DNA of 64,000 bases from Eledone cirrhosa (taxonomy: Eukaryota), in NCBI GenBank assembly GCA_964016885.1, contig OZ024745.1, positions 116,436,001 through 116,500,000 on the forward strand, in the 5' to 3' direction. The translations under genes and the position numbers were made by a program. This document shows positions 860 through 56,550 of this stretch, one piece after another (position 1 is the stretch's first letter; every line of letters begins with the position of its first letter). The notes under the pieces were generated by a model. That model did not search any database and was not told the DNA's origin. It worked only from the letters and a program-made list of their open reading frames with translations.

Positions 860-1117
860 GAAAAAAGATGAAATCGAATATGCATCTGGAGTCTTTTTTT
901 ATTTAATATATATTTATTTGGTTCCTTTACATATTTCGCAGTTCTTCAACTTTTCAAATGTAGGATTGAGATGGAGGGTCTGTGGTTTACAGACCCTCCA
1001 TCTCAACTCACCTTTTGAAAAGCCGAAGAACTACGAAACCGGTAAAGGAACCAAATAAATATATATATTTTTTTTTTAAATAAGACTTCAGTTGCATTTT
1101 CGATTTCATCTCTTTTT
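860..1117. repeat. Fold-back palindrome (~125-bp arms, centre ~985)
   Basis: TTGAGATGGAGGGTCTGT..ACAGACCCTCCATCTCAA at the centre; the arms extend imperfectly to AAAAAAGATGAAATCGAA / TTCGATTTCATCTCTTTT. Confidence 0.85.
1011..1048 (+). ncRNA. Putative minimal hammerhead ribozyme, U3-A8 core variant, weak helix II
   Basis: CCTT-TTGAAAA-GCCGAAGAACTAC-GAAA-CCGG-TA^-AAGG: helix I CCTT/AAGG and palindromic helix III ACCGGT. Confidence 0.45.
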
Positions 1118-1185
1118 CTTTATACTTTCACTCGTGTAGGACACCTCGGTTATTTTTCATTTTGTAAAAAAAACCTCACTTTCTA

Positions 1186-1556
1186 ATATATATATATATA
1201 TATATATATATATATATATAATATATATATATATATATATATATATATATATATATATATATATATATATATATATATATATATACATATATATATATAT
1301 ATATATATATATATATATATATATACATATATATATATATATATATATACATATATATATATATATATATATATATATATATATATATATACATATATAT
1401 ATACATACATATATATGTATACATATATATATATATGTGTGTGTGTGTGTGTATGTATGTATATATATATATACATCTGTCTGTGAGTGCGTGTGTGCGT
1501 GTATGCATGTGTTTGTGTGTGTGTAGGTGTGTGTGTTTGTGTGTATGTGTGTGTGT
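1186..1556. repeat. (TA)n/(TG)n compound microsatellite
   Basis: Read directly. One of dozens of (TA)n tracts in the window. Confidence 0.98.
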
Positions 1557-3149
1557 AATAAATGATCGATAAGCTTTTTAAAAGTCGTTACAATGCAGTA
1601 GAACATACAAAGGGCAAAGGATTCTTCACCGCTGAAAAATGAGGCTTTGCCCTGAAATATCAAATTTCATTGGGTAAAACATTATTTTCCTTTGTTTGGT
1701 TTTGTTTTATTTACCATTATATGCCCTTCGTAGGTTCTACTGCATTGGATCGGATTTTTAAAAAAAATCGAATATATTATTTGGCCATTTCATATAGAGA
1801 TATCAGGGCAACAAGAAACTGACCATCGATCCCATATTCCTAACTCAATAAGCGTCAATTCCTTGCAACTAGGTCGCTCTTTGGGCTTTCACCATTCCCC
1901 CAATCTCCACTTAATATTCTTAATGAAAATATGCTAATATCAATGCTAGTAAGGTAGGAATGTCTCTCTCTCTCTCTTTGTCAATAAATTGGTATAGCTT
2001 AATGATTCTTTAGAAAACTGTCCCAAATTACTTCAGAATAGGCATGAAATCTTGGAACTTTATACCAATAACTTCTGTAGTATCACAGAATACAAATCAC
2101 CACTTCGGACATGTATAGAAACAAATATTATGATGTGATTCCACTTCAATACCAGGGAAAATATATTTTCCACAAGAGAAAAAATTACGCACCGGATTTC
2201 CAATGTCATTTTTAATTAGTTGTCTGTTATAAAAGAAAGCGTAGAGTACAAAACATATGTTACAGAGATAAACTTTGAAGCTGAAAAAATTATAATTGCC
2301 TTCCCCTGTGATTTTCGTTATTGTAGAAATTATCCTGTTTGCAGTATTTTTTTAAAGATAATTCATGTGTCAGTCCATCTCAAGAGGCAGCTTTACTTCA
2401 TGATGAATGGCTTGCTGATACATTTCTAAGTTCTCATGTAGATTTTAGCATACATTTGAGCTTGATGGGCAATACATTTGAAATTGATGGCCAAGAGAGA
2501 AATCATTCAGTAACTTGCCCCTCATAAATAATTATCTGACAAAACCCGATGACCAACGAAAGATTATGAGCTCTCTACCTAATGGATGTTTGAAAGAAGA
2601 TGCAGTTTGTAGATGTCAAGTATAGAGAAAAAGACTTTGGAGTAAATATTATAGTGATGATTATAGATGAAAGGAGGTGTAAATTACTATACTTAATTTG
2701 GATATACTTTTGCATTGACAAATTCATATAAAATGTCTATAGAATATCTGGTAAGCTTTCACGCTCTTGCTAAAACTTTTGTGGCAGTTTTTAACCTTTC
2801 AGTGTTGCATTTAACATTTAAATACTGCATTTACAACTTATGTATTTTTCTATGTAACCTCGTAAATACTAGAATGTAGCATTTATATATTCATATATTT
2901 TTCATAGTAATATTTATGTATTTGCATTTAAGTATAACATGTTAGCTTTATGTATTTAAGTTTTGTATATTTGAATGACATGTCAATTACATGTATCAAG
3001 TGGATCTTGATCTTTACATTTAGTCATTTGCTGTGTTTGCTGAGTTGCTATATAATGGAGAAATTATAGAAGATGTATGTTTCAAATGTGAGAAGGGTAA
3101 GAATTTATGGAAACGAGACGTGAAGGTGTAGAGATTAGGAAAGCGCGGG

Positions 3150-3560
3150 AATTAGAATGTTTTGTGGATGGTGTATTTGCTGAGAGAAGAAAGTCGAGCA
3201 ATGTTTTGTGGATGGTGCATTGCTGAGAGGGAGAAAGACTAGCAATAATTTGTGGATGGTGCATTGCTGAGAGAGAGAAAGACGAGCAATGTTTTGCGTT
3301 GAATGTTGTGAAGAAAAGTGGAATGATACAGATGAGTCGTCTGTTGAAGAAGGGTGAATGCGATTGAATGAGAGAAGTGATGGAAATGAATGTGGAGAGA
3401 TGTAAATGAAAGAGAAGACTGACAAAGACAGGCCCGGAGGTGATGAAGGAAGAAATTAAAGCCAGGGTTTGAGGATGTGAGTGCAATTCACTGTTGAGAG
3501 GCTTTAGCGGAGAATTAACATTCTTGCTGCTATTATTGTTGTTGTTATTGTTATTGTACA
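3150..3560 (+). mobile_element. Degenerate LINE-like 3' fragment with ~50-bp internal tandem and (TTG/TTA)n tail
   Basis: Three copies of TTTGTGGATGGTG(C/T)ATT(T)GCTGAGAG; a purine-rich stretch loosely resembling an RTE C-terminus; simple-repeat tail at 3531-3556. Confidence 0.3.
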
Positions 3561-53500: not shown

Positions 53501-55599
53501 CTTCAGGAGTTACAGAACCATACTTATATTAAGAGTTTGGTCCATGTATTATTTTGACAAATACTTTTCTGCTTAGCTATAACCTGTATAATGTTCCTGT
53601 AAATAGAACTAGAGATGTTTTCAGATATTCCTTCCAATATTTTATTTATCTGCCTTCACATTCCTTTCACCTTTAATAGGCAATCTCCGTTGATAAAGAT
53701 GGAAATATAACATCTACATATAACGTGATATTTCATGGTTTATTACCAGGTTGATTTCACTATTCCAAAAGGAACTTTATCATAGAGAATATTTCAATAA
53801 CAAATTTACAATTGATATGTGTCCACATTGCTATGAATTCTATTGCCTAAAACAACCCGTTCTGCTTAAACCTTTCCTTCCAGAATATCACAACTCTAGA
53901 TTACTATTCTGCTGCATGTTTTTCTTCCTAGAGAATTCAACGAGCAGCTATTCGAGGGGAATCACAATGACATAAATCACAGTGGCACTTCTGAGACCAG
54001 TAATGTCGATGACAGAGTCTTCTCATCTCTCCTATAAAACTATTACAAAGAGGCCAAACCCATTCTCCTCTTACAAACCAATAAACAAAAATGTGATGTA
54101 GCCATTAAAATAATTCATGGCTGTTATCTTTTACCCAGTGATCACATTATTTCGTTACACTATTTTATTTGGTGTCAAAACTAGCAAAGAAATGTCTAAT
54201 TGAGGGCTTAAAATATCTGATACCGTAACGTAAACTTATTAATAACGTCGTTTATGTCTTATTTCTCGTGGCAAATATCGAGATTGGATTGGTGAGGGAA
54301 AATAACAATCAACAATGTATACATTTCCCTTCCAATTACACTATTTCTGATTGTTTTATAGATAGAGAAACTACGATACACTTGTGTAAATGTAATATTA
54401 TGCAAAAAAGAAACATACAATTCTATTCACCTTCCAATGTACAATGAACAAGCTAAGGAATATAATCCTTTTGTACATTAGAAAATTTAGTTAAGTGTGA
54501 AGTGGACTGAATAGGATTTGGGGAATATGTCAAGTACTTGTACATTTATCGAGGTAACCATTTGCTGTTTCCAGAAGAGGTTTTGCTTTATCCTTACATT
54601 ATATATCATTTTCGTGGGCAGCATCTTTAAATAAAACTAAAATTGAACTATCCGATAAAATGATAAAATATATCTACACTTTAGAGTACAGATAATGGAA
54701 TTCTTTTGAAACTTGTGATACTTTGACACTTTTGGTATCTATCTGATCAACAGAAGCATTGCAATGCCCAACTCGTCATTACAATTGTTTACTTTTTAAA
54801 GTATGTTAGGATATAATGTTCTATTAGAATCATTTGTGCCCTATATATCCCTCTCTGATTATCTTACATCTGAAGATAAAAGCACATCGATTGAGTTTGT
54901 AAACTTATGCCAATGATTGTCAGGTGCAGATATTGATTGTTAGTGTATTCAGAATATTGTGAGGTAGGGTTAAGTTATATTAGAAAGCTAATGAGCGTCG
55001 TTTCATGAGCATTTACATGACTTGACACAGTGATTGATTGTATGAATTCAAAATTTAAACAAAAACTATTACTCTTTGGTGACAGATGAGCTAAGAATGT
55101 CAGAAATAGCATGCACACACACACACACACACACACACACACACACACACACACACACACACACACACACACACACACACACACACATACACACATATAT
55201 ATATATATATATATGTGTGATGGCTGCAACTCAATTTCTAGTATTAATATAATAGCGTAAGGTCTTCAAAATGATTTTAATTAAGCATACAGTGTATTGC
55301 AAAATACACTGTATATACATTCATATATATATATATATATATAAATATATATATGAATAAATTCAGGACCCCGACAACTGAGCTCTGGCCGTTTCAACAG
55401 CTAGATCCGAAGTTTGGAGGGGTCTTGAATATTTCATATTACCCATTCAGCTAACCCAAATATCGAGTACTCTGGTGGGTAATGGTCGAACTGGTTTTTA
55501 CCGCCTCCATATATATATATATATATATATATATATATATATATATATATATATATATATATATATATATATATATATATATATATATATATATGTATA

Positions 55600-55905
55600 T
55601 ATATGAGTATATGTATAGTATATTTGGCAATATACTCTATGCTTAATTAAAAACATTTTGAAGACCTTGCGCTATTACTTTAAAGTAGTGACTATGTCAC
55701 TTACTTCTTTTTTCAACAAACGAAGGGAGAAAAGCTAACAGATTTTTTCCACACTGTTGGTAATCATCAGAGCTTAGCACTCGCCTACCTTTGTTGAAAA
55801 TAATAGAGGCTGGATTCTTATAGAATTCCAGTAATAATCAGGAACTGATTATACAGAGCGATTGCCGGTCCATCAAAAATTGAAAATTAGGATTGGTGCT
55901 CTTCA
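55600..55905 (-). mobile_element. Family D diverged copy; degenerate HHR at 55733-55774 with C3-G8 core
   Basis: rc: AGCT-CTGATGA-TTACCAACAGTGTG-GAAA-AAATCTG-TT-AGCT. Flanks are homologous to the 31.5-kb and 41-kb copies. Confidence 0.75.
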
Positions 55906-55909
55906 AAAT

Positions 55910-56550
55910 GTAAATTAGCTCTAGGAAAGAGGTTTTTCCGAGCCGTATAATATAACTGACCTCTTTCCTAGAGCTAATTTACTGTAATGAGATTATTTTG
56001 AGTTTCTAACTCAATACATGCCTTTGATATATTCGGCTCCGTTAATTCGTCGAGCTAATTCAAATGTCGAGTAAATCCGGCTGCTATTTTTAGTGGCGTG
56101 AGTTTGCGAGACACGCTAAGTTCTGGAACGATGTGCGTTACATACACGCACACTATCCATTTTTTTAAATTATTTTTGGAAGTGACCAGGATACTAATAA
56201 TTCTTCACCCGCTGATGAGCTAGAATCTTGGTATTCCTCTTCACAATTAATATTGCGAAACAGTATTATCAAAACTGTCCGGGTGATCGGTAGTTACCAC
56301 AATTCTGGTTTGTATTTATTTTTCTTGATTTATTCTTAAATTGAGTCTAGCAAACCCTATTATCTGTATTTAGTATTCTTTTCACCTTAGCGAATCTGGT
56401 CCATTACGATTTGAACACATATATGTATATGTCTGTGTTCGTTTTTCTTTTTGTTCAGTTATATTATACGGCTCGGAAAACCCTTTTTCCTAGAGCTAAT
56501 TGATGTAATGAGACTATTTTGAGTTTCGAACTCAATACATGCCTTTGAAA
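55910..56550 (+). mobile_element. ~520-bp HHR-bearing unit (family G) with terminal direct repeat and short 5' inversion
   Basis: TTTCCTAGAGCTAATT..CTCAATACATGCCTTTGA at ~55964 and ~56486. 55913-55959 is the reverse complement of 56456-56501. Confidence 0.82.
56205..56286 (+). ncRNA. Canonical type I hammerhead ribozyme (family G)
   Basis: TCACCCG-CTGATGA-GC..GC-GAAA-CAGT-ATTATCAAA-ACTG-TC^-CGGGTGA: perfect 7-bp helix I, G10.1-C11.1 pair and GUC site. Confidence 0.9.

Follow-up and report, generated by a model that had tools for sequence, protein, structure and literature searches.

What carries the many hammerhead ribozyme motifs in a 64-kb stretch of the Eledone cirrhosa genome, and how were they placed there? 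The stretch analyzed here, in the following called the window, comprises 64,000 nucleotides (contig OZ024745.1, positions 116,436,001 to 116,500,000, assembly GCA_964016885.1) and is AT-rich and filled with (TA)n; the assembly spans 2,996 Mb. A sequence-only reading had listed about 35 hammerhead motifs from about ten repeat families in it and had interpreted much of the unclassified repeat DNA as non-autonomous derivatives of Penelope-like elements (PLEs). The window motifs are real type I hammerhead folds, for which self-cleavage is predicted, and these folds occur both in truncated 3' ends of autonomous PLEs and in retrozymes, which encode no protein. The retrozymes were likely copied into (TA)n by PLE reverse transcriptase (RT) and endonuclease, probably from circular or multimeric RNA. 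We give this reading a probability of roughly 0.8.

At all 35 listed sites, the CUGANGA box (or its U3-A8 variant) and the GAAA box were present on the stated or evident strand. The sites were then compared with a full type I descriptor comprising both boxes, NUH, a helix I of at least 4 bp, a helix II of at least 3 bp and at least one extra pair in helix III; a 9.1 nucleotide or a 10.1/11.1 mismatch was tolerated, and the cut-off was a score of ≥ 20. The descriptor matched 26 of the 35 sites and one unlisted site (46874), giving 27 matches in the window, 21 on the forward and 6 on the reverse strand, a split that is mainly owing to arrays. The nine failing sites (1011, 17707, 31108, 31681, 33054, 34195, 34360, 38449, and 55733) are all damaged or half copies that kept the core boxes and have family relatives elsewhere in the genome, in the case of 17707 at one locus only. 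Site 31108 has lost the 5' arm of helix I, and in 31681 U16.1 is changed. An exact palindrome serves as helix III in 26 of the 35 sites, as judged by reading them, in agreement with the claim that most helices III are palindromic. The number of families was also borne out (11), although the motifs reduce to just 19 insertions once 13 motifs in one array, three in another and two inverted pairs are merged. Homology adds about 13 further, unlisted window sites, which are mostly decayed or half copies.

Might these motifs be chance matches in AT-rich, palindrome-rich DNA? False matches do occur, as 15 of 105 descriptor matches in a genome sample described below lay in A/T-rich tandem repeats, and the bare CTGANGA box is common in the RT coding sequence of long interspersed nuclear elements (LINEs). 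However, 20 shuffles of the window in 1-kb blocks with dinucleotides kept gave a mean of 0 matches compared to the 27 real ones, and with an earlier version of the descriptor 24 matches compared to 0.07 in 100 shuffles. A similar density in shuffled sequence, which had been named beforehand as a refuting result, was not found. Family-specific patterns matched 10,122 exact genome copies for the CTAG family (40-mer), 8,625 for the ~550-bp CTAATTAG family (25-mer) and 3,921 for the TATATA family (32-mer), as well as 14,847, 4,132 and 1,223 copies for the GAAC, U3-A8 and TGCA families, respectively, with 0 control matches in each case. Helix covariation, the second check proposed at the outset, likewise speaks against chance, and we regard this explanation as refuted.

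In the U3-A8 family alignment (A1; 31 rows, including one misaligned row for 17707), 96.1% of the cells were paired and nine pairs were changed on both sides, a number as high as in none of 500 shuffles; the core pair 3-8 switches between UA and CG. The CTAATTAG family alignment (A2; 23 rows) was 98.5% paired and contained 20 double-change cells (0 of 500 shuffles), with just two covarying pairs and a pair count that alone was not above the shuffles (438/500). Since the shuffles ignore the kinship of the rows, which inflates the result, the covariation supports, but does not prove, selection. An Rfam scan (E ≤ 10) contained no hammerhead family among the 150 of 427 matches listed, which were microsatellite-driven matches to microRNA and untranslated region (UTR) models. 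A scan for the order of the core elements in the window found 22 cases in type I order, one GSC and one GCS case in A/T-rich DNA and no SGC case; credible hammerheads of scrambled order were found neither in the window nor in the 790-kb genome sample with a scan that was possibly too strict.

The carriers of the 35 motifs fall into two classes. Twenty-four motifs lie in short units of 479, ~550, ~320 or ~323 bp without open reading frame (ORF), seven lie in PLE 3' ends, and the remaining four (1011, 12828, 17707, and 56205) were placed in neither class. For six families, the 30 matches that come first on contig C1 were inspected together with 1.5 kb of flanking sequence at each side; these loci partly overlap and are not a random sample. 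Three families form tandems, with a spacing of 456-538 bp (CTAG), 526-571 bp (CTAATTAG) or 316-322 bp (U3-A8). The TGCA family occurs as permuted copies of more than one 323-bp unit, with no full tandem in 30 loci. In all four families, the hammerhead is preceded by the 3' part of the unit itself and not by an ORF, and these families are non-LTR retrozymes, i.e., retrozymes without long terminal repeats (LTRs). The window contains a CTAG array (GC content ~35%) in which ~2.5 units on the reverse strand (24436-25612) stand back to back with ~10.9 units on the forward strand, with hammerheads for example at 25731-25775 (+) and 24752-24796 (-). Its outer ends both adjoin (TA)n, at different unit positions. 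The 12 units compared differ at two positions in total, and inverted and forward units are identical except for two single changes. Further retrozyme families were seen outside the window, namely a ~466-bp relative of CTAG (L107 2584) and a 311-bp array in which every unit contains one core (G000:C1:1241766-1244278).

The TATATA and GAAC families behaved differently from these. A short same-strand tandem was found in 0 of 30 loci for each of them. Their copies differ in the position of the 5' end, and the longest ones extend into same-strand GIY-YIG and RT sequence. This link to an ORF was seen at L159, L148 and L144 among the 30 TATATA loci and at nine of 30 GAAC loci (L281, L285, L291, L296, L297, L299, L303, L304, and L306). 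In two of 15 loci of the 34195/34360 family, L247 and L046, PLE protein sequence ends upstream at a distance of 293 and 311 nt, respectively. Because of the same-strand GIY-YIG and RT sequence upstream in other copies, we assign the window members of the TATATA (13935, 32970/33054, 38449), GAAC (4481) and 34195/34360 families to truncated autonomous PLEs. One interrupted PLE copy of the window (10283-14038) has an inverted tail at 10283, RT and GIY-YIG remnants at 10329-11559 and a long AT-rich 3' UTR with nested insertions; L144 matches it at 11388-11552 and 13532-14038. Pfam recognized RVT_1 and GIY-YIG, below the curated cut-offs, in two of three PLE proteins; the short PLE fragments of the window and a 628-amino-acid ORF of L095 were not recognized. 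A third and a fourth PLE type are present in the window as RT fragments only, with 19,990 and 4,183 first-look candidates in the genome, respectively. The linker motif is CxCX5C in two PLE types, one of which also has DKT, and CX4CxxC in two others, which suggests from the linkers that two types belong to the Hydra clade and two to Neptune/Nematis.

The PLE-end assignment of three families raises the question whether all carriers could be ends of autonomous PLEs that were truncated on the 5' side or duplicated locally, with tandems arising by duplication of pseudo-LTRs (pLTRs) at the DNA level and no separately mobile RNA. Local pLTR amplification has been described as a route to retrozymes (bioRxiv 10.64898/2026.07.22.740005), and the set of PLE proteins used covers four types only. 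However, among 120 loci of the four retrozyme families (overlaps included), PLE protein sequence lay upstream on the same strand in only three. In one of these (L221), an inverted PLE end is fused to the unit, and in the other two (L126 and L212) the protein sequence is more than 1 kb away, beyond the element. Moreover, the unit's own 3' part occupies the upstream position, and the arrays are scattered over thousands of sites and carry a different variant at each of them. We therefore consider this explanation unlikely. A little less probable still is the interpretation of the sequence-only reading, which regards almost every family as a non-autonomous derivative of PLE ends and ascribes a large part of the unclassified repeat DNA to these families. 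The 24 motifs in ORF-less units and a PLE footprint common to both classes agree with it, and the PLE connection and the common layout of the repeats were upheld. A restriction to non-autonomous elements is already contradicted for three families, which hold seven motifs in autonomous elements, and no sequence link to a parent was found. Fifteen window families account for 24.4% of the window, but for 4.2% of the genome sample (microsatellites masked), so that the statement on unclassified repeat DNA was too strong genome-wide. As a whole, that interpretation is partly supported.

The evidence for copying of the retrozymes by PLE enzymes comes from the ends of the insertions. In all seven families tested, two fixed 3' ends were found that lie 35-130 nt apart, downstream of the predicted cut site. 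The 14 end signatures occurred 366 times: (TA)n follows in 179 cases, the element sequence continues in 157, and neither applies to the remaining 30. Of 30 back-to-back insertions, 28 paired one short with one long end (P = 4e-7 compared to independence). For PLE ends this held in 19 of 19 cases (TATATA 8/8, GAAC 11/11) and for retrozymes in 9 of 11; the 34360 family was not included in this count. In a separate signature run, four of four back-to-back insertions of the 479-bp family paired both ends. Most ends, as seen by eye, sit where the element sequence continues with a few A/T letters, and these could anneal to nicked (TA)n. Substitutions within arrays averaged 0-0.3% in six arrays and 1.3% in L052, compared to 3-12% between arrays; the low divergence within arrays fits copying of each array from one template in one event. 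The two ends at (TA)n in both classes and the pairing in 28 of 30 insertions point to PLE enzymes moving the retrozymes.

In the proposed mechanism, retrozyme units would be transcribed by read-through, and the RNA would be cleaved to unit length by the predicted hammerheads, which would act as dimers in families with a short palindromic helix III. The cut RNA may then be ligated to a circle. A PLE protein would bind this RNA and nick both (TA)n strands, and reverse transcription would start at two internal sites, with one site used on either side of the cut. Arrays would form as the enzyme passes around the circle, and the two complementary DNAs would be joined back to back. A biochemical precedent is the purified anole PLE, which cleaves AT-rich DNA on both strands and uses two internal start sites for reverse transcription, thereby making the PLE tail; it is predicted to dimerize, and the tail is called unique to PLEs (PMC11167929). 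A different enzyme, such as that of the abundant LINE at 14107-17410, could in principle have moved the retrozymes, which would then have landed in (TA)n by chance. A young LINE with an RVT_1 domain is indeed present twice in the window and also adjoins (TA)n. Two fixed internal 3' ends and the pairing of one of each, however, match the PLE tail (PMC8557442, PMC11167929), and involvement of another enzyme is very improbable.

Several observations weigh against the copying of circular or multimeric retrozyme RNA by PLE enzymes. In vitro, the anole PLE could insert without its hammerhead, which required protein for cutting, and no RNA ends were found at the cut site (PMC11167929). From Xenopus, only one of nine retrozyme dimers is reported to have been cleaved in vitro (bioRxiv 10.64898/2026.07.22.740005). 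The end signatures were chosen after viewing the copies, and two retrozyme cases (AA and BB) break the pairing rule. One CTAATTAG pair (L193), 20.5% apart, represents two separate insertions and not one array, and array homogeneity could also result from local expansion after insertion. The predicted circular monomer was strongly self-paired in two of four retrozyme families (z = -9.4 and -6.5; 60 shuffles each), but these values are inflated by self-complementary microsatellites in the units. Finally, a blastn comparison of four retrozyme units with ten PLE-end or other-family sequences gave no match at E < 0.05. As no sequence is common to the retrozyme units and the PLE ends found, the partner enzyme cannot be named; for the same reason, descent of the retrozymes from the sampled PLE ends is not demonstrated. 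Cofolding of dimers gave the expected helix III duplex for one of five families and other pairings for the rest and was not used as evidence.

To estimate abundance in the genome, 79 stretches of 10 kb at round coordinates were sampled from 22 large contigs; the four largest (379-443 Mb, 54% of the assembly) contributed 43 stretches. This 790-kb sample contained 105 descriptor matches compared to 0.75 in shuffles. After the 15 false positives, which belonged to three A/T-rich tandem repeats, had been dropped, 90 credible matches remained in 28 clusters and 38 of the 79 stretches; 59 of them were palindromic. The resulting density of 114/Mb corresponds to ~3.4x10^5 intact folds per genome (bootstrap 95% 2.2-4.7x10^5), and the density in the window is ~3.7-fold that of the sample, mainly as a result of the array. 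At least 28 families are present in the sample, with a Chao1 estimate of ~58. In the whole genome, the pattern CTGANGA-N11-32-GAAA occurred 492,497 times and its reversed control 154,463 times. The background in the shuffled sample (53/Mb) agrees with that of the reversed control (52/Mb), which puts the excess at ~3.4x10^5, part of which may reflect the frequency of the box in LINE coding sequence. A pattern with a longer spacer (364,687 compared to 154,973) was not used as a count, since it counts the short-spacer sites again and also matches LINE RT sequence. With 264 hammerhead queries, a homology search identified 157 sites in the sample, equivalent to ~6x10^5 per genome (4.3-7.8x10^5); both boxes are exact in 128 of them, equivalent to 4.9x10^5. 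We thus estimate 300,000-600,000 hammerhead copies in the E. cirrhosa genome, most of which are likely dead relics. The very large genome-wide count that had been predicted is in line with both the intact folds and the total including decayed copies.

A system of this kind is already published, and a connection between PLEs and ribozymes has been proposed before (PMC4209133, PMC7229834, bioRxiv 10.64898/2026.07.22.740005). Of interest here are the scale and the insertion footprint common to both classes; the origin is mixed. The hammerheads described in PLE pLTRs (PMC4209133) resemble those found here in the type I fold, the short palindromic helix III, the U3-A8 variant and an extra nucleotide after A9. 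They also resemble them in the many sequence-unrelated families per genome, which mostly occur as single dispersed truncated copies, and in pairs on opposite strands 100-700 bp apart. In contrast to that description, several E. cirrhosa families have long or stable helices II and III, and the counts given there are ~9,000 for Xenopus tropicalis, 4,000 for coelacanth and 2,000 plus 1,300 minimal motifs for Schistosoma mansoni, compared to 3-6x10^5 here. Metazoan non-LTR retrozymes (PMC7229834, PMC7761336, bioRxiv 10.64898/2026.07.22.740005) likewise consist of short tandem units of low GC content with one type I hammerhead each and no ORF, have a strongly self-paired predicted circle and coexist with PLEs; those of E. 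cirrhosa are known from DNA alone. The retrozyme units as presented in PMC7761336 carry no motif that names the mobilizing element, whereas those analyzed here have the two-end footprint of PLEs. In Xenopus, 24 of 57 retrozyme families are given as homologous to Repbase elements, nearly all of them PLEs, and retrozymes are argued to derive from pLTRs (Li, Clavereau and Pollet 2026, bioRxiv 10.64898/2026.07.22.740005), whereas no pLTR link was found here. PLE clades with an endonuclease (EN+), Hydra and Neptune/Nematis (PMC8557442), have the same layout as the PLEs of E. cirrhosa, with RT followed by GIY-YIG, a tail at one end, an inverted 5' copy and a (TA)n target. The CxCX5C linker corresponds to that of Hydra, and CX4CxxC lies within the Neptune-type CX2-5CxxC. 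The tails differ in length (35-130 nt here, 30-40 in PMC8557442), and one type here has a 3' UTR of 1-1.4 kb.

The largest published count that we found is that of the axolotl with 126,247 motifs from two families in 28.21 Gb, ~4.5/Mb compared to ~114/Mb and at least 28 families here; coral has more than 6,000 motifs in 16 families and mussel ~5,000 (PMC7229834). Our estimate exceeds this count. The words ribozyme and hammerhead are absent from the main text of a 2026 repeat annotation of Octopus vulgaris. In the literature searched, which did not extend to supplements and subscription papers, neither a cephalopod hammerhead census nor a higher count nor a two-end rule in retrozymes was found. 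The small S. mansoni genome may contain hammerheads in the tens of thousands, which could match the density seen here. Taking scale and footprint together, one may go further and propose that no genome described so far is richer in ribozymes than this one, that its hammerheads number about half a million and belong to 30-60 families, and that its retrozymes record a missing step of the life cycle. In that step a PLE enzyme dimer would grip one circular RNA at two fixed start sites and copy it round into both sides of the (TA)n cut, leaving back-to-back arrays with a short and a long end. This combined proposal is tentative, and we put its chances somewhat below even. The hammerheads of the window and their carriers are listed in Table 1.

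Table 1. Hammerheads, their carriers and related PLE sequences in the window (window positions; ~, approximate).
Feature	Position	Strand	Remarks
479-bp retrozyme array (CTAG family)	24436-30817	both	13 hammerheads
Hammerhead of older single CTAG-family copy	12025-12067	-	copy at ~11765-12235, nested in PLE 3' UTR
320-bp retrozyme array (U3-A8 family)	41037-42190	+	inverted 5' piece 41037-41193
Hammerheads of the U3-A8 array	41378-41422, 41698-41742, 42018-42062	+	
Hammerhead, C3-G8 member of 320-bp family	18474-18515	+	
Hammerhead of 320-bp family, U16.1 changed	31681-31725	+	inverted half copy 31437-31472
Decayed hammerhead of 320-bp family	55733-55774	-	
Hammerhead of ~550-bp retrozyme family (CTAATTAG)	8156-8234	+	long helix II, 10.1/11.1 mismatch
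Hammerhead of ~550-bp family	42830-42912	+	copy just over one unit (42474-43083)
Half hammerhead of ~550-bp family	31108-31191	+	centre of back-to-back insertion 30854-31261
Hammerhead of ~323-bp family (TGCA)	32578-32623	-	circularly permuted copies, no ORF
Interrupted autonomous-type PLE copy	10283-14038	+	ends at (TA)n; hammerhead 13935-13995 (TATATA)
Inverted pair of TATATA-family hammerheads	32967-33038; 33056-33117	-; +	truncated PLE 3' ends
TATATA-family hammerhead, helix II damaged	38449-38509	+	related inverted PLE remnants 35813-37200
Hammerhead (GAAC, extra 9.1 nucleotide)	4481-4523	-	truncated 3' end of second autonomous PLE type
Back-to-back PLE 3' ends	33990-34603		damaged hammerheads ~34190-34237 (-) and ~34358-34405 (+)
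5'-truncated RT of third PLE type	2-835	-	its 3' end (minimal hammerhead, CAATTG) outside the window
RT fragment of fourth PLE type	19095-19370	+	relatives end in minimal hammerhead (helix III CG)
U3-A8 hammerhead (CCGG), helix II damaged in window copy	1011-1048	+	decayed inverted partner 912-973
Hammerhead with long helices, hairpin helix III	12828-12905	+	
U3-A8 hammerhead (CTACGTAG), bulged helix II	17708-17795	+	fails descriptor
Hammerhead, 7-bp helix I and stable non-palindromic helix III	56205-56286	+	
Unlisted descriptor match	46874-46922	+	no relative among 307 loci

Some other repeats of the window also contain hammerhead-like sequence. In the 1011 family (861-1185; L067, L068, L082, L234, L245), many copies start ~45 nt before the core and two extend further upstream; the common start may mark a transcript start. 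A very common fold-back repeat (38555-38685, 40877-41000, and 55367-55403; 81 matches in 46 loci) usually turns round inside a U3-A8 hammerhead, with one full fold seen (L072). The region 4666-5165 had been considered a GIY-YIG remnant, which was dropped since tblastn gave no match. Together with 34671-35244 on the reverse strand, this region (on the forward strand) belongs to an abundant repeat (36 matches in 26 loci) whose two 3' ends adjoin (TA)n. It has a hammerhead-like core in which the fourth base is A in every copy listed; helix II forms, and helix I was not found.

The remaining repeats are of various kinds. Copies of one LINE (14107-17410 on the forward and 8359-10205 on the reverse strand) are 93% alike with few breaks, have ends adjoining (TA)n and contain endonuclease-like and RVT_1 regions; we take this LINE to be RTE-like. 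Between a truncated LINE and (TA)n lie 5.5 copies of TTAGGG (10204-10236). A dispersed repeat resembling short interspersed nuclear elements, without hammerhead, is present at 23551-23744, 44503-44849, 59723-59927, 60847-61022 and 63627-63815 (at least six copies, 84-94% alike). Another repeat (37200-38100), inserted in a PLE remnant, contains internal duplications, and its start resembles the ends of non-autonomous Helitrons. A minisatellite of 29-31 bp with ~34 copies (19363-20366) directly follows a PLE RT fragment, and a 320-bp direct dimer at 58114-58755 (92% alike) showed neither a hammerhead nor similarity to the 320-bp retrozyme. A search of the window for host exons gave nothing clear, and no host gene was identified in which a strand bias of the hammerheads could be tested.

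Earlier proposals of PLE-driven retrozyme mobility rest on co-occurrence and phylogeny, and the footprint adds evidence from insertion sites here. In one genome, autonomous ends and ORF-less units share the two-site footprint of a purified PLE in vitro, which names exact RNA positions to test. With one intact fold per ~9 kb, one relic per ~5 kb and dozens of unrelated families, the E. cirrhosa genome represents a very large natural library of hammerhead variants. Such a density raises a testable question for the organism, namely whether sense-strand copies are purged from introns.

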